Assembly: GCA_905182775.1 (NCBI GenBank)
Contig: CAJJCU010000007.1
Span: 1 to 49,674, forward strand
Origin: an uncultured Flavobacteriales bacterium
GTDB lineage: Bacteria > Bacteroidota > Bacteroidia > Flavobacteriales_D > Crocinitomicaceae
Reading direction: 5' to 3'
Length of the DNA stretch: 49,674 bases
Shown here: positions 4,861 through 42,474 of the stretch, piece by piece
How positions within the stretch are numbered: position 1 is the stretch's first letter
Layout: every line of letters starts with the position of its first letter
Made by a program: the position numbers and the translations under genes
The notes under the pieces: model-generated
Seen by the model: only the letters and a program-made list of their open reading frames with translations
The model's database searches: none
What the model was told of the DNA's origin: nothing

Positions 4861-7800
4861 ATGAAAAAAATACTACTTTTTAGTTTTGCATTGTTCGGTT
4901 GTTTTTCAATACTCAAAGCACAATGTGATTCTCCAACATCTGCAACCCCACTTTCTTTTTGTGGCGGCGCAACTGTTGAGCTCGAAGCATCTGCTTCACT
5001 AGCTTCTTTAACATACACCCTTAATATGGTTGATGCTTGGGGAGATGGATGGAACGGAAACGAAATAACAATTCTTGCGGATGGAGCTGTTGTTCTTGCA
5101 GATGCCACTATAGAAAATGGAACAAATGCATCAGCAACCTTTACTGTATTAGAAGGTTCTTTAATAACTGCAACTTGGGTTGCAGGAGGTTTTCAAAGTG
5201 AAGTTTCATTCGATATCTTAGATGAAACAAATGCAGTTATCTTTTCAGGAGCAGCCAATGATCCAATCAACTGGCCTGTTGCCACTGATGGTCCATATAC
5301 TCTAAATTGGTACGATGCAACTGGAGGAACTCTTTTAGGTTCAGGTGCAACCTTAGACGTTTCTGCCTTGGCTCCAACAACTGGTGCATATAGCTTCTTA
5401 GTAACTCAAACAGGCCTATTATGTACTGAAAGTGACCCTTTTGAAGTGGTTGTGAATATTTCAGACGTTAATGTTGAACTCTTGATTCAAGACGTTTCAT
5501 GTGTTGGTAATGCTGATGGAACATTTTCTATTGCTGCTGTACAATGCGGTACAGGTCCTTTTAGTTTTTCTGTTGACGGTGGGGCATTTGGTCCAGCACC
5601 TACAGATTTAGCCGCTGGAACTTATAGCGTAGTTGTAGAAGATGGGGCAACACTCCAAAGTTCTCCTATTGCAGTTGAAATAGGTACACCAGCAACTGTT
5701 ATTCCTAGTCCTCCTAGCGCGGAATCTCCTTTGACATTTTGTAGTGGTTCTGCCAGTATTACTTTAGAAGCTTTAGCTTCGGGATTACCTGTTGTATTTA
5801 CATTAAATATGTTTGACTCATGGGGAGATGGATGGAATGGAAATTCAATAACTGTATTTGCTGATGGCGTTCCAGTTTTGACAGACGCAACCATTACAGC
5901 TGGAGACTTTGAAACTGCTTCATTTGCAGCAAACGAAGGTGCTACTATTACAGCAACTTGGGTTGCAGGAGGTTTCCCTGCTGAAGTTTCTTTTGAAATT
6001 GAAGACCAAGATGGTCTTGTTGTTTATAACGGCGGATTTAATGATCCAATAGATTATTTGATTCCTGCTGGAAACTACCCTTTAAATTGGTATGACGCTG
6101 CAACAGCAGGTAATCTTGAAGGAAATGGATCACCTTTTGAAGCTGTTGGTTCAGGAGTTATGCCAGCTGCGGCTACAGGTACATACGACTTTTTCGTAAC
6201 TCAATCGAATGGCGGATGTGAAAGTATCGCTACTCAAGTTACAGTTGAGATTACAGATGTAAATGTAACGCTAAGTGTTACAGATGAAACATGTACTGAT
6301 TATACCAACGGTGGATTTGCAATTCTGGATACTTTGTGTGGTACAGCACCTTTCGTTTTCCAAGTAGATAGTGGAGCGTTTGATGTAGCTCCAAACTTAA
6401 CTGCTGGAACCTATTCAATTGTTGTTCGAGACGCTGATTCGCTTTTCAGTGAGCCGATCGAGATTACAATTAACACTATTGAAACGTCTATTCCTCCTTC
6501 ACCGGTGGCTGACTCTGCTGTTTATGCATGTGTTGGAGATTCGAGTATAGAGCTAACAGCTGTTGGAGATATTGCTACGACTGACTCTTTGTTGACAACT
6601 ATGGCTGCAGGTAATGGTTCTGAAGGAACAATGTTTGTTATTGAAGCGATTCAAGAAACTACGATTCAAGACTTTGCCCTAAACATGAATCCAGGGACCG
6701 GCGATGTCTCAATATGGTACCGTGCAGACGACTACCTTATTGTGCCGGGAGCAAATACAAGTGATGCTGGATGGATTTTAGTTGGGACAGCTACAGGTGT
6801 AGCATCTTCTTCGCCAAACTATACAAATATTCCTGTACCAGTAAATATTACAGTACCTGCGGGTGAAAGATACTCTTTTCACGTTCACTCGACGGGTGGT
6901 GTAGCGTACACTAACGGTGCTGGTTTAGGAAATGTTTTCGCTTCTAACGCGAGCTTTAATTTCATTGAGGGACACGGTGGAGCGCCTGCATTTAGTTGCA
7001 CCTTCGCACCAAGAGTCTTTAATGGTTTAATTCGATTTGAAGCAACTGAATCAATCGATATAGCTTGGTTCGATGCAGCGACTGATGGAGCTGTAATCGG
7101 AAACGGAACTCCTTTTGAATCTGTCGGAACCGCTATTCTGCCTGATGCCGATTCAGCAGGTACTTTCGACTTTTATGTCGCAAGTAACAACAACGGATGC
7201 TACAGTGCAGAAACTGTTGAAGTGAGTGTAAATATTTCTGATGTAAATGTTTATTTATCATCAGTAGATGCAACTTGTAATTCAGGAGCCGATGGTTCTT
7301 TCGTTATTGATTCTGTAGATTGCGGTGAGGCACCTTATACATTTTCTGTAGATGGTGGCGCAACGGGTCCAGCTCCAACAGATTTGAGCCCTGGCGTTTA
7401 CGAAGTTGTTGTATTTGATGGCCTTGGAGATTCTTCAAGTGTGTATTTTTTAACGATCGGAAGTGCCGCTGGCCCGTCTGATCTAGTCATTAATGCTATT
7501 CAGGATACAAGTGTAGAAGTTTCTTGGGTGTCTAATGGATCTGAAACAGGATGGACTGTTGAATACGGTGCACCAGGATTTACTCCAGGCGCAGGTGAAG
7601 AGATCGGTTCCGCAATGTTTACAGACACTGTTGGATTTATCAACAACTTATCCGGTAATACAAACTATGACTACTATGTAGTTGCTGATTGTGGTACTGG
7701 TGTTTATGGTGATTGGTCACTTATATCCTTTACAACGGATTGTGGGTTCTACATGGTTCCATTTATGGAAACCTTTGAAGATGATTCAGAAACACGTATT

Positions 7801-10958: not shown

Positions 10959-11003
10959 ATTTAGTTTAGAGTTTTGTATATTTATCTACAATAAATTAAA
11001 TAA

Positions 11004-12815
11004 ATGAAAAATCTACTACTTACCGCTTGCATAGTAATTACTGCAAGTCTTGTTTGGGCGCAAAAGGCACCAAGAATCATCTCACTTGATGAGCTAATCA
11101 CTATTGAGAAACCCTCATTAGACACGGAAACTTTAAAAGACGAAGGCGTTACGATTTGGTCTGATGATTTCTCTGATGAATCCACATGGACACTTGATAA
11201 TAGTGGGCAAAACGGAGGAGCATTCGGATGGTCAATTGATGCTACATCGGATGGATGGTGGTCCAATGGAGGTATTAATTCTACGTCTGGAGGAAACTTT
11301 GCTGAGCTCTCCAATGGAGATGCTACAGTTGGAACACAAGCCTTAGATGTCATCTATACAATGACAACTGCAGCACCTATCGATGTTATCGCTTTGGCTG
11401 GATCGAACCAGGTGACATTAGAATTTGAACAATTCGGTGCTAGATTCAATGACCTTCAGCAGGTTTTATATAGCACTGACGGAGTCACTTTTACTCCAAT
11501 TGGAGATAATCTTGACAAGCCTGTTTTGTCTTCTGCAGGAGGCGAACCATACGACAACCCTGATTTAAAGCAGATTAACTTAGGAACTTTACTAACAGAA
11601 ACAAACGATCCCATTTGGATTCAATTCAGTTGGACAACAAATTTCCCTGCTTCTGCAGTAGAACCTAATGTTTGGATTACCTATGGCTGGTACATTGATG
11701 ATGTTCGGCTTGTTACAAATCCGGGTAATGACCTTGAGGTTACTGAGACGTTCTGGGGTTCAGAAGGGCTTAATTATTTTCAAATTCCAATCACTCAGGT
11801 TGCTCCAATTAATTTCGAAGCCGTGTTGTTTAATAGCGGTGTCACTGAGCAAACGAATATTACTTTAAATGCTGACGTTAACGGAGGATCCTTCACCGGT
11901 TCAAGCGACCCGATTTCTTTACAATCTTTAAGTATAGATACAATTAGTTTGAGCACATTGTTTACGCCCGATGCATTAGGAGATTACACTGTGATACAAA
12001 GTATCACTGCCGACTCAACGGATGATGTCCCTAGTAACAATGAAATCGGAGACATTAGCTTTTCTGTTGTAGACTATATTTATGCTCGCGATAACAACGA
12101 TGTTGGAGGAAGTACAAGTAATGGAATAGATGGATTTGAATCTGGGAACCTATTTGATATCTGGTCAGATCAGACATTAAAAGCAATTGACATAAGATTA
12201 CCCGGAGGAACAAACGGAACAGCGCTAGGAATAGAGTTCTACGTAAAGCTGTATAGCCTTGATGAAGCAGGTGAATTTGTTTATGTAAATGAATCAGACC
12301 CAATTATTATAACACAGCAAATGCTAAACACGATTCAAACAATAGAATTGTTGTTTCCTACAGATGTGTTTGCAAATACAACCTATTTGGCTGTAGTAGG
12401 GTCTTATGAAGAAGGATTCAGAGTTTCAACGGCAGGAACTTCAGATCCTCAGACTTCGTTCTTCCTAGACTTTGCTAACAATACTTGGTACTACCAAACA
12501 GGAACCCCTTTTGTTAGGTTAAATTTTGATCCAACGATTGGTATACAAGAAAATAGCGCTTCTTTTAACGCAGGAAATGTGTACCCGAATCCAGTAGATG
12601 GAGCGGCTTCTTTAAAGGTTTTCATGAACAATTCGCAGCAAATGACATTGAGCATAACTGACCTGTCAGGAAGGGTTGTCTATTCTAAGAACAAAACACT
12701 TCATTCAGGTGAAAACAATATTGTTTTAGCTTCAGGGAGTCTAAATAGCGGAATCTATACTGTTCTTTTAAATAGTGGATTGAGTACTATTTCTAGAAAA
12801 ATGGTAGTAAAGTAA
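11004..12815 (+). CDS. T9SS-secreted protein with an N-terminal MAM/choice-of-anchor-J-like domain and a type A C-terminal sorting domain
   Basis: Signal peptide LLLTACIVITASLVWAQ. WSDDFSDESTW...GWYIDDVRL domain. C-terminal VYPNPVDGAASLKV...GIYTVLL...RKMVVK. Confidence 0.8.
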   Translation: MKNLLLTACIVITASLVWAQKAPRIISLDELITIEKPSLDTETLKDEGVTIWSDDFSDESTWTLDNSGQNGGAFGWSIDATSDGWWSNGGINSTSGGNFAELSNGDATVGTQALDVIYTMTTAAPIDVIALAGSNQVTLEFEQFGARFNDLQQVLYSTDGVTFTPIGDNLDKPVLSSAGGEPYDNPDLKQINLGTLLTETNDPIWIQFSWTTNFPASAVEPNVWITYGWYIDDVRLVTNPGNDLEVTETFWGSEGLNYFQIPITQVAPINFEAVLFNSGVTEQTNITLNADVNGGSFTGSSDPISLQSLSIDTISLSTLFTPDALGDYTVIQSITADSTDDVPSNNEIGDISFSVVDYIYARDNNDVGGSTSNGIDGFESGNLFDIWSDQTLKAIDIRLPGGTNGTALGIEFYVKLYSLDEAGEFVYVNESDPIIITQQMLNTIQTIELLFPTDVFANTTYLAVVGSYEEGFRVSTAGTSDPQTSFFLDFANNTWYYQTGTPFVRLNFDPTIGIQENSASFNAGNVYPNPVDGAASLKVFMNNSQQMTLSITDLSGRVVYSKNKTLHSGENNIVLASGSLNSGIYTVLLNSGLSTISRKMVVK

Positions 12816-36390: not shown

Positions 36391-37293
36391 ATGGCTCAAG
36401 AAATTACTTCAAATCCTAACATACTCAAAATAATCTTGGTGTTTACCAAGTTTCGACTTTCTTTTTTGGTCGTAATTTCTGCCTTGTCTGGTTATCTGTT
36501 TGCAGGGGGAGCGGATTTAAATATAATCACACTTTTAATGGTTGGTGGCTCATTCGTTACAGCAGCATCCAATGGAGCAAATCAAATCTGGGAGAAAGAC
36601 ATTGACAAGCTCATGAAAAGAACGGAAAACAGACCGTTACCTCAAGGTCAAATGAGTGTAAATACAGCTTATTTATTAGTGATTTCTTTACTTATTGTTG
36701 GTACATTCTTACTTTATTTAATCAACATTAGATGTGCGGTATTGGGCGTCGCCGCATTTATCTCCTATGTGTTTATATACACCCCTATGAAGTCACGCAG
36801 CTCTTGGGCTGTTTTTGTCGGCGCCTTTCCTGGTGCTATTCCCCCATTACTTGGAGCAATAGCTGCAACAAATGAATTCGGTTTTTTACCCGGTGTTTTA
36901 TTTTTCGTGCAATTTACGTGGCAATTTCCTCACTTTTGGGCCATAGCTTGGGTCACTCATGAAGATTATGCAAAAGCGGGGTATCACCTACTCCCGTCTG
37001 CTCAGGGAAAATCAAAACAATCTGCTTTTCAAATTCTTTTATATTCCTTTGCCCTAATACCATTTAGTCTGATTCCATGGCTCTTAGATTGGACAGGAAA
37101 TACAACCTTTGTAATCGCCGCGTTATTAGGTATTATGTTCTTTCTATATGCTTACAAACTTTTTTTAAGTCAACAAGATGCTGATGCCCGTAAACTTATG
37201 TTCGCCTCTTTTGTTTATTTACCAATTATTCAATTTACCTATGTGTTCGACAAAGCAGAACACATTAAAATTTTAAGTGATGGATTTATCTAA
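36391..37293 (+). CDS. cyoE: Protoheme IX farnesyltransferase (heme O synthase)
   Basis: UbiA-family motifs NQIWEKDIDKLMKRTENRPLP. 300 aa with about 9 TM helices. First gene of the oxidase accessory operon. Confidence 0.9.
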   Translation: MAQEITSNPNILKIILVFTKFRLSFLVVISALSGYLFAGGADLNIITLLMVGGSFVTAASNGANQIWEKDIDKLMKRTENRPLPQGQMSVNTAYLLVISLLIVGTFLLYLINIRCAVLGVAAFISYVFIYTPMKSRSSWAVFVGAFPGAIPPLLGAIAATNEFGFLPGVLFFVQFTWQFPHFWAIAWVTHEDYAKAGYHLLPSAQGKSKQSAFQILLYSFALIPFSLIPWLLDWTGNTTFVIAALLGIMFFLYAYKLFLSQQDADARKLMFASFVYLPIIQFTYVFDKAEHIKILSDGFI

Positions 37294-38341
37294 AGATTTA
37301 GACCCTTCGGTCAATGAGAAAATGAAGAAAAACTTAGTTTATGTAAGTTGCTTCAGTATTGTTATGCTTTTTGCTGGACTGACCTCTGCCTATATTGTTA
37401 GCATGGGCGATGCGTTTTGGTTAAATGCGCCGCTACCAATTGCATTTTGGTGGAGCACAGCGTGTATCGTATTGAGTAGTTTGACATTTGTTCTAGCGAT
37501 TAGAGCTGCAAAGAAAGGTCAAAATAGCCTTCTCAAGATTGGCATGGTAGTCACCTTGGTTTTGGGACTTCTTTTTGTATACTTTCAATGGTCTGGATTT
37601 GGTCAATTAATGAATAAAGGGGTTCATCCTTTTCAGAACCACCTTGTTGTTACAGATGGGCGCTATGGGGATTATTTCGAGGTGAAAAAAGGCGACCAAT
37701 ACATCACGGTAGATGGAAACGACTACCTTTTGAATGGTAAAAAGATGTCGGCTAAAGATTTTGAGAGCTTCCAGAATTACATGAACGAATTCATTTCCGG
37801 AGACAACTACAATAACAAATTTAGATTGGTTACTTCTGAAAAAGCGCAAGATTTCACATTACTTTTCAATAACAACACGCTCCAAGTCAAAAATCAAACC
37901 TTCTATTTAAATGATTCTACCCCTCTTAAATCAGCCGATGTATTGCGCTTAAAACAACTCTCTCAAAATGTCGTTGACGGCAGAGGTGACTTTTTCGCAA
38001 AAGGTAAGTTAGGCGAAGACTTTGACATCTCATTTAAAGGAGAAAAACTTGAATATAAAAACCGGAAGCTTTATTATAAAAACAAAGTTTTATCAAACTT
38101 CTTGCAGATTAAAGCCACTGAATCTTCAGATATGGCGTCTTCCTTTTTGTACATTTTAATCTTCCTACATTTATTGCATATTGCTGCCGCTCTGATCTAT
38201 TTAAGTAGGGTCGTATTGCGGACTCTATTAAATCGATTTAGCTCTGAGAATCACTTAACTCTAAGGCTAACCTCGATTTTCTGGCACTTTTTAGGGCTTT
38301 TATGGGGCTACTTAATACTGTTTTTGGTTTTTATTCATTAA
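37280..38341 (+). CDS. Cytochrome c oxidase subunit III-like protein (first of two) carrying a ~165-aa hydrophilic insertion
   Basis: CoxIII-like TM helices at both ends (LFAGLTSAYIV, IGMVVTLVLGLLFVYFQ, FLHLLHIAAALIYL, IFWHFLGLLWGYLILFL). Start is GTG 37277 or ATG 37280, overlapping the cyoE stop. Confidence 0.7.
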   Translation: MDLSKDLDPSVNEKMKKNLVYVSCFSIVMLFAGLTSAYIVSMGDAFWLNAPLPIAFWWSTACIVLSSLTFVLAIRAAKKGQNSLLKIGMVVTLVLGLLFVYFQWSGFGQLMNKGVHPFQNHLVVTDGRYGDYFEVKKGDQYITVDGNDYLLNGKKMSAKDFESFQNYMNEFISGDNYNNKFRLVTSEKAQDFTLLFNNNTLQVKNQTFYLNDSTPLKSADVLRLKQLSQNVVDGRGDFFAKGKLGEDFDISFKGEKLEYKNRKLYYKNKVLSNFLQIKATESSDMASSFLYILIFLHLLHIAAALIYLSRVVLRTLLNRFSSENHLTLRLTSIFWHFLGLLWGYLILFLVFIH

Positions 38342-38364: not shown

Positions 38365-39420
38365 ATGGCCGGACAGACGACACAATTAGATTCAAAAACA
38401 TTATGGGGTGGAAAGGAATCTCCTTTTCAAACGAGCTACGGAAAGTTAATGATGTGGTTTTTTCTGGTATCAGATGCCTTGACTTTTAGTGGCCTACTTG
38501 TTGCCTATGGCTTTGTAAGACATGATACGTTAGGAGCATGGCCAATTGGAGAAGAAACCTTTGATTCACTGCCTGGTTTAGGTCATGGTTACCCCCTAAT
38601 TTATGTCGCCTTGATGACCTTTATTTTGATTGTTTCTTCAGTTACAATGGTGCTCGCTGTTGAAGCGGGTCACCGAATGGATAAAAAAGGTGTAGTAAAA
38701 TGGATGTTCGCTACGGTTATTGGTGGGTTCTTCTTTTTGGGTTCTCAGGTATGGGAATGGAGTCACTTTATTCACGGTTCAGAATTTGGAAGAATCGAAT
38801 TAAGCGATGGTTCAGAAGCAATTGTTAAGGGACATTTTGGTGAAATAGAAAGCTTTACAGTTATGCAAGCTGGTTTGCATCATAAAAAAGGCGATGTTAT
38901 TAAAGATGATTTGATGCATACCTTTCAGCATGCAGCAGAAAACGGAGACATCAAAGCAGGTGGTCTTATTCACCTTCATGATGGATCGGTAGCTAAAATC
39001 AAAAAAGCACATGACCATGACATGGAGCTTACTATAAAGTATACCGCAGCAAAGTCCAAAAGAAAGATTGGCGATAAAATATCTGGAAAAGAAGCAGAGA
39101 AACAATACTACGCGTCATTATACAGTGGTATTCCTAAAGTGACTTACGGTGCTAAATGGTTTGAAGATGGAGAACATTGGTTGCCTACAAAAAATGAATA
39201 TGGGCCTCAACAATATGCTCATTTTTTCTTCTTCATTACTGGCTTTCATGGTTTCCATGTTTTCTCTGGAGTGATGATTAATATTTTGATTTTGTTTGGT
39301 GCCATGAAGGGCACTTACCATAAAAGAGGGCATTATGAAATCGTTGAAAAAACCGGACTTTATTGGCATTTTGTTGATTTAGTATGGGTATTTGTATTCA
39401 CCTTCTTTTACCTTGTATAA
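38365..39420 (+). CDS. Cytochrome c oxidase subunit III family protein (second of two) with a ~145-aa His-rich insertion
   Basis: GKLMMWFFLVSDALTFSGL, FFLGSQVWEW, FFFFITGFHGFHVFSGV and YWHFVDLVWVFVFTFFY are canonical CoxIII motifs. Confidence 0.8.
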   Translation: MAGQTTQLDSKTLWGGKESPFQTSYGKLMMWFFLVSDALTFSGLLVAYGFVRHDTLGAWPIGEETFDSLPGLGHGYPLIYVALMTFILIVSSVTMVLAVEAGHRMDKKGVVKWMFATVIGGFFFLGSQVWEWSHFIHGSEFGRIELSDGSEAIVKGHFGEIESFTVMQAGLHHKKGDVIKDDLMHTFQHAAENGDIKAGGLIHLHDGSVAKIKKAHDHDMELTIKYTAAKSKRKIGDKISGKEAEKQYYASLYSGIPKVTYGAKWFEDGEHWLPTKNEYGPQQYAHFFFFITGFHGFHVFSGVMINILILFGAMKGTYHKRGHYEIVEKTGLYWHFVDLVWVFVFTFFYLV

Positions 39421-39441: not shown

Positions 39442-39810
39442 ATGGAAAGAGATGATTTAATTGAATATTCTTTAGATACGCATCATTCTGAAGAAGAAGG
39501 AAAAAAGATTAGAAGTAAAATTGTAAAAGTCACCATCTTACTTACTTTAATCACCGTTATTGAGGTTGCACTTGGAGCCTTCATAAAGCAATCTGCTGAT
39601 TTTTGGCCTTTTGTTAAATGGACTTTTATTGTACTTACCTTATTAAAGGCAGGATACATTGTCATGGTATTCATGCACCTTGGAGACGAAAGAAAATGGA
39701 TGCGTAACGTCATCTTAATTCCTTATGCGACCTTTATCGCATACTTGATTTTCATAGCGCTGTGGGAAGCTCTTGCTGTAGGAGACGCTTGGTCATCAGT
39801 TGCCGCTTAA
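39442..39810 (+). CDS. Prokaryotic cytochrome c oxidase subunit IV family protein
   Basis: 122 aa with three TM helices. Its position directly after the CoxIII genes and its size fit the bacterial CoxIV family. Confidence 0.6.
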   Translation: MERDDLIEYSLDTHHSEEEGKKIRSKIVKVTILLTLITVIEVALGAFIKQSADFWPFVKWTFIVLTLLKAGYIVMVFMHLGDERKWMRNVILIPYATFIAYLIFIALWEALAVGDAWSSVAA

Positions 39811-39819
39811 CTGAAGCCC

Positions 39820-40467
39820 TTGTCGAAAAATAGATTCAATAAGTTTATTGGTTTTTTTCTTGTATTTGGCCCAGCCATGTTGCTCGTATTTATAGGCACA
39901 AGAAGTTGTGAGCATAAATTCGAAGAGCTCGATGACTACGGTCAGATGCCTTCATTTGAATTTACGGATGCTTTTGGTAATAACAGATCATCAGAAGAGT
40001 TTAAAGGAGAACTCTTACTAATCAATACGCTACAAAGTTCCTGTCCTGATAGTTGCTCAGTATTAATGTGGCACTTGAATCAAACTATCTATCAGCACGT
40101 ATGGAACAACAAAACGAAAAAAACGAAAAGAATTAGAATGATTTCGTTTCTTACGGATGGAAATGGAAACCCCGAAACGGATCTCTCTATTATCAATGCC
40201 GCTGTGAATGACCTCGCAGAGCACTATGACCCCTCAATTTGGATGATAGCAACTGGCGATGTCAAAAAAATATATGACATCAAAAGCAACGGTGTTAACC
40301 TCGTCGATAGCGGAGGAGACTTCCAAGAGCTCATGCTCCTTTTAGACAAAGAGCACCATTTAAGAATGGTTTTATCAGGGAAAGTTGAAGGGCAAATAAG
40401 AAGAATGAAGCAGAGTATGGCCCTACTTCAAAAACAATACGACAAAAAATCATCAACGAAAGAATGA
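39820..40467 (+). CDS. SCO-like thioredoxin-fold protein, degenerate paralog (CxxxC kept, copper-ligand His missing)
   Basis: TTG start with one N-terminal TM helix. It aligns with the downstream SCO protein: LINTLQSSCPDSCSV vs [15 protein letters not shown], and ISFLTD vs LSFSID. GGDFQELMLLLD replaces [12 protein letters not shown]. Confidence 0.6.
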   Translation: MSKNRFNKFIGFFLVFGPAMLLVFIGTRSCEHKFEELDDYGQMPSFEFTDAFGNNRSSEEFKGELLLINTLQSSCPDSCSVLMWHLNQTIYQHVWNNKTKKTKRIRMISFLTDGNGNPETDLSIINAAVNDLAEHYDPSIWMIATGDVKKIYDIKSNGVNLVDSGGDFQELMLLLDKEHHLRMVLSGKVEGQIRRMKQSMALLQKQYDKKSSTKE

Positions 40468-41141
40468 TGCGCTTTTTTCCACTCTTTTTATTACTCATTC
40501 TATGTGCTTGTTCGGATGATGAATCAAAAGTCAAGCTTCCCTACATCGGACATTACGACCTTGAGTATAGTACTAAAGACGGTATAAAACTTGTTGATAC
40601 GGTTTACCAACCAATTCTTGATTTCTCTTATCTCAATCAAGATTCTATATCGGTATCGAATGCCACTTACAAAAACAAGATTTGGATTACCGAATTCTTT
40701 TTTGCGACCTGCCCAACGATTTGTCCCATAATGAATGGTGAAATGAAACGACTTCAGGAAATGATTCAAGAGATTGATAGTGATTCAAGAGTACAATTTC
40801 TATCCTTTTCTATAGACCCAAAAAAAGACAGCCCCGCAGCACTAAAACAGTACAAACGCCGTTATTGTAAAGACTGCGAAAACTGGGACTTTTTAACAGG
40901 CGACGAAGCGTTTACCCATCGCTTAGGTATTGAAAGCTTTAAAGTATTTGCAGGTAGAGAAGAACAAGCAGAGGGTGGATATGCTCACTCGGGTGCATTT
41001 TCTTTGGTAGACCCTGATGGGTTCTTAAGAGGCGTCTATAACATAACAGATTTCGATGGAATCGTAAACAATAAGGAATCCCAACGGTTAATTAAAGACT
41101 TACACTTACTTATAGAGAACACAAGTGTCAAAACAAATTGA
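40464..41141 (+). CDS. SCO/SenC-family copper chaperone, lipoprotein
   Basis: Lipobox LLILCAC. CPTIC (CxxxC). [14 protein letters not shown] (conserved His). ATGA start/stop overlap with the upstream gene. Confidence 0.85.
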
Positions 41142-42474
41142 ATACATAGAAGAGCAATTGAACCCGTTAAGGGATAAGCTAAAAAACCATAGCCTATATG
41201 ATCATTTGCAAAGTATTGAAGACGTTAAAATCTTTATGTCTATGCACGTATTTGCTGTTTGGGATTTCATGTCTCTATTAAAGGCTTTGCAGATTCAGTT
41301 AACAACAACAACAATTCCTTGGACACCAAAACCCAAAGCCTCTTTGGCTAGGTTTATTAATGAGATCGTTCATGGTGAGGAGAGTGATATCAATGAATTA
41401 GGTGAGCCAAAAAGTCATTTTGAAATGTACATTGAGTCTATGGAGCAGATCGGTGCAGACTCCAATGAAGTAAGAATCCTGGTGCAAAAAATAGAAAATG
41501 GAGTTGGGATCATGGAAGCTCTTGAGGCGGCAAATATCGATCCTTCTGTTAAAGATTTCGTTCGCTTTTCTTTTGAGGTGATTGACTCCGGAAAAGGCCA
41601 CTGCATTGCTGCTGCTTTCACTTTTGGGCGTGAGGATTTAATACCTGACATGTTCATTGAAATTTTAAAGCAGGCGGACACGAAAAACACCTTGTATAAT
41701 AAGCTTCGGTATTATTTAGACAGGCACATAGAATTAGATGGCGATGAGCACGGGCCCCTTTCACTTCAAATGGTAGAGGAGCTGTGTGAAAATGACAGTA
41801 CTAAAACCCTAGAGGTCCTTGAAACATCGAAAAAAGCCCTTCAACACAGAATCAATTTATGGGATGGAATCCAGTCCAAAATTGTTGCTCAAAAAGGAAG
41901 AGTACAACGCATTGGGCCTAAGCCAAACAAAAAACTTGATAAAGCAATTCTTGCCGTTTCTATCGTCATTCCTTTAGCCGTGGCTATTCTTTTTGGCGTA
42001 AAGATTGAAGGGCTTGACTTTTCTTTTTTACCCCCAATCTACGCAGGATTAAATGGCTTGACTGCTGTGGGACTTATAGCCGCACTTGCTGCTATTAAAT
42101 TAAAAAACAAGGCCATACATCAAAAGATCATTCAGCTGTGCCTACTTAGCTCTATTCTTTTCTTATTGCTCTATGTTCTATACCATATGACTTCTAGTTC
42201 AACTAAGTATGGAGACCTTAATGGAAATGGGATTCTAGAAGCAGCTGAGCAACTTCAAATTGCAAGCACACAAACGCTATATTATGTGATTTTGATTTCA
42301 CATATTTTTTTAAGCCTTGTCGTAATTCCAATGGTTTTGTTTACCTATAAATTTGCTTGGGAAGGAGATTTTGTGAAGCACAAAAAATGGACTCGATTTG
42401 CATTCCCAATATGGTTATATGTAGCTATTACCGGTGTGGTTGTCTTTTTTATGATTTCGCCTTATTATTCCTAG
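41125..42474 (+). CDS. Fusion protein: N-terminal DUF3050 (heme-oxygenase-like fold) + C-terminal DUF420/CtaM-like four-helix membrane domain
   Basis: GTG start overlapping the SCO gene by 17 nt. N-terminal part: HSLYDHL...[35 protein letters not shown]-terminal part: [81 protein letters not shown]. Confidence 0.7.

Follow-up and report, generated by a model that had tools for sequence, protein, structure and literature searches.

A predicted HamA-family iron domain fused to a CtaM-type membrane module at the end of an oxidase assembly operon in marine Crocinitomicaceae

Introduction

Why would a bacterium join a member of an enzyme family known from natural-product biosynthesis to a protein that is needed for an active respiratory oxidase? 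The question is raised by a single open reading frame (ORF) in DNA from an uncultured Flavobacteriales bacterium of the Crocinitomicaceae (GenBank assembly GCA_905182775.1, contig CAJJCU010000007.1, positions 1 to 49,674 of the forward strand; this whole stretch of 49,674 nucleotides is here called the window). The ORF lies on the plus strand at 41125..42474 and encodes 449 amino acids plus a stop codon. Pfam finds two domains in its product, PF11251 (DUF3050) and PF04238 (DUF420). The gene closes an operon, where it follows cyoE-cox3-cox3-cox4-SCO-SCO.

Neither family is, of course, new. Proteins of the DUF420 family, also called CtaM, are required for an active aa3-type heme-copper oxidase, as has been shown in Firmicutes (PMC4958251, PMC13344008). 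DUF3050 is a large family, with some 4,100 representative clusters matching the fusion query, mainly by way of DUF3050, and its single characterised member serves a specialised natural-product pathway; the members discussed in the literature are PvfA, MgoB and HamA, which are dispensable in some assays. Sequences in which the two families are fused are also already present in public databases. No published description of the fused architecture was found, however, the two families appearing together only in one database table that lists them separately. A sequence-only reading of this DNA had likewise known of no described function for the fusion. What is new here is the history of the insertion that created it, an apparently independent second origin, and a testable link between the two families.

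The link matters for what it would say about both. A fusion that has arisen twice in distant phyla, as this one seems to have done, ties CtaM/DUF420 and DUF3050 together. If the coupling is true, then an oxygen-dependent iron enzyme joins the oxidase biogenesis factors, and a physiological role is suggested for solitary DUF3050 genes. If it is false, the case teaches caution in inferring function when a domain with many partners is found fused.

An iron domain of the HamA type

The protein encoded at the end of this oxidase assembly operon is real, consists of two modules and has been maintained by selection. Its N-terminal module (residues 1-255; 41125..41889, plus strand) is predicted to be a cytoplasmic non-heme-iron domain with a heme-oxygenase-like (HO-like) fold. 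PF11251, renamed HamA_HO-like in newer Pfam releases, matches residues 19-249 with an E-value of 1.6e-97 and 326.2 bits (cut-off 22.2), over model positions 1-233 of 233. With phmmer, the sole solved structure matched by sequence was that of HamA from the fragin cluster of Burkholderia (PDB 9VWB, E 2.5e-56). A full-length AlphaFold2 model of the fusion protein, built from a 99-sequence alignment (pLDDT 86.2, pTM 0.71), gives the same protein as its best structural neighbor when searched with Foldseek (9VWB, E 5.2e-15, TM 0.92, rmsd 1.9 Å, 251 columns, 35% identity), followed by weaker fold matches to UndA, CADD, TenA, HrmI, PolF and FlcD. The proposal that this half is a DUF3050 domain with an HO-like fold, made from the letters alone, is thus borne out.

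Residue conservation was read from a 99-sequence alignment that covers both fusion clades, described below, together with standalone proteins. The residues that are invariant there include H41, E85, E86, H98, R169, E170, H201, D205, H209 and R242, while E80 and E203 are nearly so (at least 90%). Six of the invariant residues (E85, H98, E170, H201, D205 and H209) would make up the canonical set, three histidines and three carboxylates on core helices 1-3, of the heme-oxygenase-like di-iron oxidases (HDOs). E84, H96 and H199, which bind iron in HamA, align with E85, H98 and H201 of the fusion protein, and the proposed 2-oxoglutarate residues H40, R167 and R240 of HamA align with H41, R169 and R242. 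Judged by sequence and model, the module is an intact HamA-family HO-like non-heme-iron oxygenase domain that has kept its metal-ligand set.

The sequence-only reading had offered its own list of candidate ligands, in the motifs E80-x2-H83-x-E85-E86 and H201-x-E203-x-D205-x-D207-E208-H209. Both motifs are present, and most of their members (E85, E86, H201, D205, H209 and, nearly invariant, E80 and E203) can stand. Not so H83 and D207, which are not listed among the conserved residues; at the position of H83, HamA has Leu. E208 is only the majority residue, being Asp in the second fusion clade, and the list left out a key ligand, H98.

What is known of the chemistry comes from HamA. The enzyme hydroxylates valine hydroxylamine carried on a domain of a nonribosomal peptide synthetase (NRPS) and is described as 2-oxoglutarate-dependent, with 2-oxoglutarate binding through H40, R167 and R240 deduced from docking and one mutant (PMC12522199). 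One iron was modelled in its site, bound by E84, H96, H199 and a further Glu, and an Fe:protein ratio of 1.5:1 was measured (PMC12522199). An earlier modelling paper reached the di-iron reading (PMC4520260). The iron ligand called 'Glu184' in PMC12522199 is an Ile in the numbering that fits H40, E84, H96, R167, H199, E206 and R240. E168 of HamA, which corresponds to E170 of the fusion protein, is a nearby invariant carboxylate that would fit, and 'Glu184' may be a misprint.

Profile mapping of DUF3050 onto the ligands of CADD and UndA gave no match, HamA alone being detectable by sequence profile. UndA itself was given a single iron in its first description and was found to be a di-iron enzyme in later work.

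A membrane module of the CtaM type

The C-terminal module (residues 269-449; 41929..42471, plus strand) is reached through a basic linker at residues 256-268 (41890..41928, plus strand). This stretch of about 14 residues is the least confidently modelled part between the domains, with a mean pLDDT of 63 at residues 261-270. The end of the linker aligns with the K/R-rich tail at the N terminus of standalone DUF420 proteins. PF04238 matches residues 302-444 (E 6.8e-35, 120.6 bits against a cut-off of 30.5, model positions 1-130 of 130). Pfam scanning, which had been proposed as a check with the sequence-only reading, thus recovers DUF3050 and DUF420 across their entire models. No NCBIfam model matches the fusion protein.

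The first reading had counted four helices in this half. AlphaFold2 predicts five, at residues 269-289, 302-325, 329-356, 373-413 and 416-447, and the standalone DUF420 proteins of Crocinitomicaceae (175-190 amino acids) likewise have five, behind their K/R-rich tail. Four histidines, H332, H354, H393 and H419, show at least 95% conservation within each of three sets, namely the two fusion clades and the standalone proteins; several Tyr and Trp residues of this half are conserved across the same sets. By position, the histidines would form the pairs H354/H393 and H332/H419, one near each membrane face, an arrangement that would fit a redox relay or a route for metal. Charge distribution, the positive-inside rule and the modelled helices together place the linker and loops 2 and 4 on the cytoplasmic side; with the linker predicted to be cytoplasmic, the iron domain should be cytoplasmic as well.

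Modelled separately, the DUF420 domain (pLDDT 82.7, pTM 0.79) has no significant Foldseek match in the PDB. The best hits, at E 0.49-2.5 and TM 0.4-0.5, are to oxidase subunit III, the first of them at E 0.49, and are treated here as noise, or as a lead at best.

Between helices 3 and 4, in a loop predicted to be periplasmic, twelve residues (D364-E375; 42214..42249, plus strand) follow the pattern D-x-N-x-N-G-x-L-x-x-x-E. They fit the calcium loop of an EF-hand at positions 1, 3, 5, 6, 8 and 12, and may bind calcium. Comparable loops occur in the standalone DUF420 proteins L027, L030, L044 and P0158. The entire 16-residue insert is absent from other standalone DUF420 proteins, from a subgroup of 433-residue fusions, and from the second fusion clade.

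The fusion is not an artefact

An ORF of this kind, seen in one metagenomic contig, could of course be spurious. Separate DUF3050 and DUF420 genes might have been merged in a chimeric contig or by a frameshift, the latter named in the sequence-only reading as a possible refutation. Against this speaks a search of 5.8 billion proteins, which returned some 30 clusters of uninterrupted fusions, 433-449 amino acids long, carrying both Pfam domains at 65-100% identity. These derive from independent projects (Tara, ENA, JGI, Logan and NCBI metagenome-assembled genomes, or MAGs), lie on contigs of up to ~185 kb, and come from marine Crocinitomicaceae. In NCBI the members bear the plain label 'DUF420 domain-containing protein [Crocinitomicaceae bacterium]'. 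When one genome per GTDB species was scanned with exact peptide patterns, the fusion gene was found in five MAG species (L005, L006, L007, L008 and L012), labelled Crocinitomicaceae, Cryomorphaceae or Flavobacteriales. Exact peptide patterns also found no second copy of DUF3050 in the fusion-bearing MAGs, which is weak evidence that there is none.

Selection has acted on both halves. Across the fusion loci, dN/dS falls within 0.04-0.06 in DUF3050 and within 0.03-0.055 in DUF420, low values that imply strong purifying selection on each. The junction region (residues 243-352) contains neither a stop codon nor an in-frame ATG.

Two loci can be cited on the other side. In L008, a MAG of UBA952, the fusion gene is frameshifted at a poly-A run within the DUF420 half (10971-11090, in the region of AAATTAAAAAACAAG). 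This is probably an assembly error, and it explains why the corresponding protein, P0033, ends at 364 amino acids without a DUF420 annotation. The second, L058, is a short contig whose fusion gene (5547-6893; P0028) is a mosaic. Over codons 1-165, identity to any DUF3050 found is only 45-50%; over codons 166-258, identity to the L001 group is 97-99%, and the OmpA gene downstream is ~92% identical. Upstream lie hemE, a HemN-like radical SAM gene, hemH, protoporphyrinogen oxidase and LysE in place of a cox operon. L058 is either a chimeric metagenome contig or a true rearrangement between two DUF3050 copies. Because the full-length fusion has been recovered in many independent assemblies and is under purifying selection, a frameshift or chimera is ruled out as its source; we leave that explanation next to no chance.

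Origin within the Crocinitomicaceae

How did the gene come to be? The proteins of the window were mapped by tblastn onto 54 related loci. Many Crocinitomicaceae and other Flavobacteriales, Brumimicrobium oceani among them, carry the operon as cyoE-cox3-cox3-cox4-SCO-SCO-DUF420, with DUF420 as a standalone gene. A subset of these loci has even the flanks of the window, DXS upstream and OmpA and DUF4403 downstream. The sole difference in the fusion lineage is a DUF3050 domain lying in frame between the second SCO gene (SCO b) and DUF420.

The two halves can each be traced to a standalone counterpart. The fused DUF420 is 56-66% identical to the standalone DUF420 in the equivalent slot of the operon. 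The fused DUF3050 is 67-69% identical to the nearest standalone DUF3050 of Crocinitomicaceae, found in other MAGs with CotH-like and CHU_C genes on either side, at a locus unrelated to this one. Since sister Crocinitomicaceae hold DUF420 alone in the same slot and DUF3050 elsewhere, it is DUF3050 that was inserted and fused. Comparison of the loci shows, on this basis, that the family's own standalone DUF3050 was inserted between SCO and DUF420 and fused in frame in one marine Crocinitomicaceae lineage. The inserted gene would be a relocated ortholog rather than a foreign gene, because its identity to the standalone copies is within the range seen for other genes that the lineage has in common with its standalone-DUF420 relatives.

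The equivalent gene sits at the identical site in L001, L002, L005, L006, L007 and L012, and, frameshifted, in L008. Because the insertion site is common to all, it argues for one fusion event in Crocinitomicaceae. A tree of the N-terminal domain resolves no further than a trichotomy (internal branch 0.004) between the main fusion group, P0019-P0021 and 12 standalone sequences.

Divergence along the operon is not uniform. When the window is compared with its closest relatives, L008 and P0002, DNA identity is 65-77% in a tract (~40450..41930, plus strand) that takes in exactly SCO b and the DUF3050 domain, against ~80-92% for most other parts of the operon. The 3' breakpoint of the tract falls at the domain junction, and the DUF420 half of both relatives is 89-90% identical to that of the window. 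The same comparison shows a second drop, to about 70%, at the 5' end of cyoE. L001 and L012, compared with each other, show no drop across SCO b and DUF3050. The tract probably results from a recombination in which SCO b and DUF3050 were exchanged together, like a cassette.

A second fusion in Myxococcota-like bacteria

The fusion is not confined to one lineage. A search of 1.8 billion cluster representatives gave two further fusion representatives, P0124 and P0125, that are 36-44% identical to the protein of the window. With P0270-P0289 they belong to a second clade of about 22 clusters, 449-486 amino acids long, with both domains and 43-84% identity to P0124.

Taken domain by domain, the second clade is 33-44% identical to the window, whereas the window is 56-69% identical to the standalone proteins of Crocinitomicaceae. 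The linker of the second clade is about three times longer and unrelated to that of the window, and the clade has its own branch in the N-domain tree. Its taxonomy rests on the named best matches to one neighbouring gene: the COX1 adjoining one of the fusions shares 79-85% identity with its counterparts in MAGs of Bradymonadia, Myxococcales and Nannocystaceae. From the low domain identity, the longer and unrelated linker, the separate branch and the Myxococcota-like COX1, we infer that the second fusion arose independently, in Myxococcota-like bacteria. Two independent origins would, in turn, support a functional coupling of DUF3050 and DUF420.

Genomic context was available for six members of the second clade. 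In two, the fusion gene directly precedes the series cytochrome c-cytochrome c-COX2-COX1-COX3-COX4-COX3, and follows genes for TlpA-like and DsbA-like thiol-disulfide oxidoreductases on the opposite strand. In one other, cytochrome c-COX2-COX1 lies 6.5 kb from the fusion. In the locus L061 (3864-7221), the fusion gene of P0279, of the same clade, is followed on the opposite strand by a gene for H-NOX, a sensor of NO or O2 that uses heme, and by genes for a histidine kinase and for a response regulator that carries a guanylate-cyclase domain. This is a single occurrence and may be due to chance.

What the fusion might do

We judge the chances to be evenly balanced that both modules work together in making the oxidase, at the CtaM step, probably in the export or redox handling of copper. 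CtaM has been proposed to export or reduce copper for Sco, a proposal drawn from genetics alone (PMC13344008, 2026). Under cooperation, the CtaM step would lie after heme A synthesis, and copper export or redox handling would feed SCO and the copper centres. The contribution of the tethered iron domain would be a step at the cytoplasmic face, dependent on O2 and possibly on 2-oxoglutarate, which might be an oxidation, a redox reaction or the synthesis of a ligand. Fusion would set the ratio of the modules at 1:1 and keep them adjacent. The suggestion in the sequence-only reading that an oxygen-activating soluble domain has been placed on an oxidase assembly factor is borne out by the HamA-type domain tethered to a CtaM-type module.

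A more specific and more ambitious proposal, which we regard as a long shot, is that DUF3050 and CtaM/DUF420 are an unrecognised pair in the maturation of heme-copper oxidases. Here, the cytoplasmic oxygenase would make or oxidise a small metal-binding ligand, or alter the redox state of copper, and DUF420 would carry copper or its complex through the membrane to SCO. The rationale for the ligand is that HamA-type pathways lead to metal-chelating diazeniumdiolates; two papers present these compounds as metallophores, some of them copper-binding (PMC5878181, PMC11085572). If such a pair exists, solitary DUF3050 proteins would be doing housekeeping in respiration, not natural-product synthesis.

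Cooperation is not, of course, the only reason why two genes might come to share a reading frame. DUF3050 might have landed beside DUF420 and lost its stop codon, and might go on performing a conserved reaction of its own, the one it would also perform in other Bacteroidota where it is solitary, without any biochemical cooperation between the halves. Anchoring or co-expression would then be tolerated or mildly useful, co-expression perhaps as a rule to 'express when respiring aerobically'. Several observations weigh against cooperation or suit this opportunistic history. Outside both fusion clades DUF3050 has no conserved link to cox genes or to DUF420. At 27 standalone DUF3050 loci, the only recurrent neighbours reflect synteny among close relatives, and no partner recurs across phyla. 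The domain is also found fused to truncated globins, a globin, a B12-radical-SAM domain, an FAD halogenase, HalD and DUF4202, and because it joins so many unrelated partners, any one fusion is weaker evidence of a shared function. HamA, the sole characterised enzyme of the family, acts on NRPS-tethered valine in natural-product biosynthesis, and the present locus has no NRPS nearby. In three of the six second-clade contexts, the available flanking DNA contains no cox gene. The linker, being flexible and unconserved, points to no fixed interface between the domains. The segment of SCO b and DUF3050, lastly, behaves as an exchangeable cassette. Against opportunism stands the fact that the identical two families were joined in two distant phyla. 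The fusion has also been kept, with dN/dS of about 0.05 in the first clade and with 43-84% identity within the second, and no full-length locus with the fusion has its halves split again, the only exception being L008 with its probable poly-A assembly frameshift. An opportunistic fusion, the main rival to cooperation, is doubtful in our estimate, if still a possibility to be taken seriously.

A different kind of cooperation had been proposed in the sequence-only reading, in which the fusion takes part in the modification or delivery of heme O or heme A. Here, the N-terminal domain would bind or oxidise heme O, either as a chaperone for heme O/A or as a heme A synthase, alternative or auxiliary, and DUF420, possibly a distant relative of half of CtaA, would pass the heme to subunit I. 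The idea has its attractions. Heme O synthase opens the operon, the window holds no ctaA, the N-terminal fold is that of the heme oxygenases, an ancestry of CtaA in DUF420 has been proposed (PMC8239418), the first role suggested for CtaM was that of a heme O/A chaperone (PMC4958251), and on the mosaic contig L058 the fusion gene lies beside hemE, the hemN-like gene, hemH and the protoporphyrinogen oxidase gene. Several findings speak against it. In S. aureus, ctaM mutants lose oxidase activity and still make heme O and heme A (PMC4958251), and in B. subtilis the oxidases of ctaM mutants still contain heme A (PMC13344008). The N-terminal domain has a full set of non-heme ligands, and true heme oxygenases are among the weaker Foldseek matches, those to HamA, UndA and CADD being far better. 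The homology of DUF420 with CtaA is disputed (PMC12808453). The fusion protein has no match to PF02628 (COX15-CtaA) at E <=0.01, and the 50 PDB matches listed for the DUF420 model include no CtaA chain. The contig with the hem genes looks chimeric.

Nor does the absence of ctaA carry weight. That the window lacks CtaA/COX15 agrees with the sequence-only reading, as no match was found among 37 of the 38 listed ORFs of at least 120 amino acids, an antisense ORF at 10982-11353 being left out. The scanned ORFs that flank the operon in L041 and L039, which have the same operon with a standalone DUF420 and hence no DUF3050 domain, also include no ctaA. Because those flanks lack it too, its absence from the window is uninformative, and it was dropped as evidence for a role in heme A synthesis. 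Beyond location, nothing favours a link between the fusion and heme A; the link is unsupported, and a heme role for the fusion seems to us very improbable.

Relation to known systems

The nearest known relatives of the N-terminal domain are HamA, PvfA and MgoB, from the fragin cluster of Burkholderia cenocepacia and the pvf/mgo clusters of Pseudomonas, with which it shares family, fold and mapped ligands. The settings differ. HamA is a soluble protein of ~260 amino acids, encoded in an NRPS gene cluster and acting on carrier-tethered valine or hydroxylamine, whereas the domain here is membrane-anchored and encoded in a respiratory operon. Genes of the ham/pvf type (NRPS, AurF-like N-oxygenase, cyclase) were absent from the window and from the related fusion loci. 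Because this context is missing, the domain is placed in the sequence family of HamA and not in its known pathway; and because the domain is membrane-anchored in a respiratory operon with no NRPS nearby, it is unlikely to have the same substrate.

More distant are the HDOs UndA, CADD, SznF, HrmI, PolF and FlcD, which rank next to HamA among the structural matches. Like the N-terminal domain they are seven-helix HO-like bundles with a site made of carboxylates and histidines, but identity is 10-16%, and the HDO structures that were matched carry no description as membrane proteins. The site of the DUF3050 family may take one metal or two; HamA was modelled with one iron. DtpC of Acinetobacter, an HDO-like desiccation protein, was considered and not used, as it has not been shown to be a DUF3050 protein.

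Globins recur among the partners of DUF3050. In the representative clusters P0146, P0157 and P0217, a Bac_globin domain is N-terminal in two and a Globin domain C-terminal in one, a hint of O2- or NO-linked chemistry in the DUF3050 family. Other fusions, a tandem duplicate included, are P0263, P0193, P0127, P0179 and P0121.

For the C-terminal half, the comparison is with CtaM of S. aureus and YozB of B. subtilis, which are likewise encoded near ctaB/cyoE, SCO and oxidase genes and which the half resembles over the whole family model. Those proteins stand alone. The fusion protein adds an N-terminal transmembrane helix, found also in the standalone DUF420 proteins of Crocinitomicaceae, a cytoplasmic enzyme domain of 255 residues and, in the lineage of the window, the EF-hand-like loop. 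CtaA/COX15 is, like DUF420, polytopic, with conserved histidines, and is often encoded near ctaB. The fusion protein differs from it in showing no Pfam or significant fold match to it, and CtaM is dispensable for heme A synthesis.

DUF420 has been joined to a partner in oxidase biogenesis elsewhere. Fusions of SCO with DUF420 in Planctomycetes are mentioned in PMC13344008 as an argument that CtaM and SCO act together in delivering copper. DUF420 is joined there to a copper chaperone of the periplasm. The partner in the present fusion is a putative cytoplasmic, oxygen-activating iron enzyme, and SCO is encoded by a separate, overlapping gene upstream.

The operon

The genes upstream of the fusion are all on the plus strand and closely packed, as the sequence-only reading had described. 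From cyoE to the fusion gene, the junctions are overlaps of 17, 4 and 17 nucleotides and otherwise gaps of 9-23 nucleotides. The fusion ORF starts with GTG and overlaps SCO b by 17 nucleotides, the TGA of the latter being at 41139-41141; the single ORF of 449 codons that had been placed 17 nucleotides inside the SCO gene is therefore found at the same coordinates.

The first gene, cyoE/ctaB for heme O synthase (36391..37293), matches TIGR01473 (cyoE_ctaB, E 7.4e-74, above cut-off) and PF01040 (UbiA). The gene for prokaryotic oxidase subunit IV, cox4 (39442..39810), matches PF03626 (COX4_pro, E 1e-11). Both SCO proteins match PF02630 (SCO1-SenC): SCO-like protein a (39820..40467), with a CPDSC motif, at E 8.6e-07, which is above cut-off, and SCO copper chaperone b (40464..41141), with a CPTIC motif, at E 1.4e-23.

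The two genes between cyoE and cox4 encode proteins like oxidase subunit III. The first (37277..38341; 354 amino acids) matches PF00510 (COX3) at residues 283-350, just at the cut-off, as well as the NCBIfam models for subunit III; the second (38365..39420; 351 amino acids) matches PF00510 at E 6.8e-12 and the CyoC/CtaE models in two stretches. In each protein the best Pfam COX3 stretch is confined to the final ~70 residues, and the NCBIfam models match in two stretches; between the membrane parts there are, apparently, ~150-170 residues rich in charge. This arrangement is kept in all related loci and, if real, would be unusual for an oxidase subunit III.

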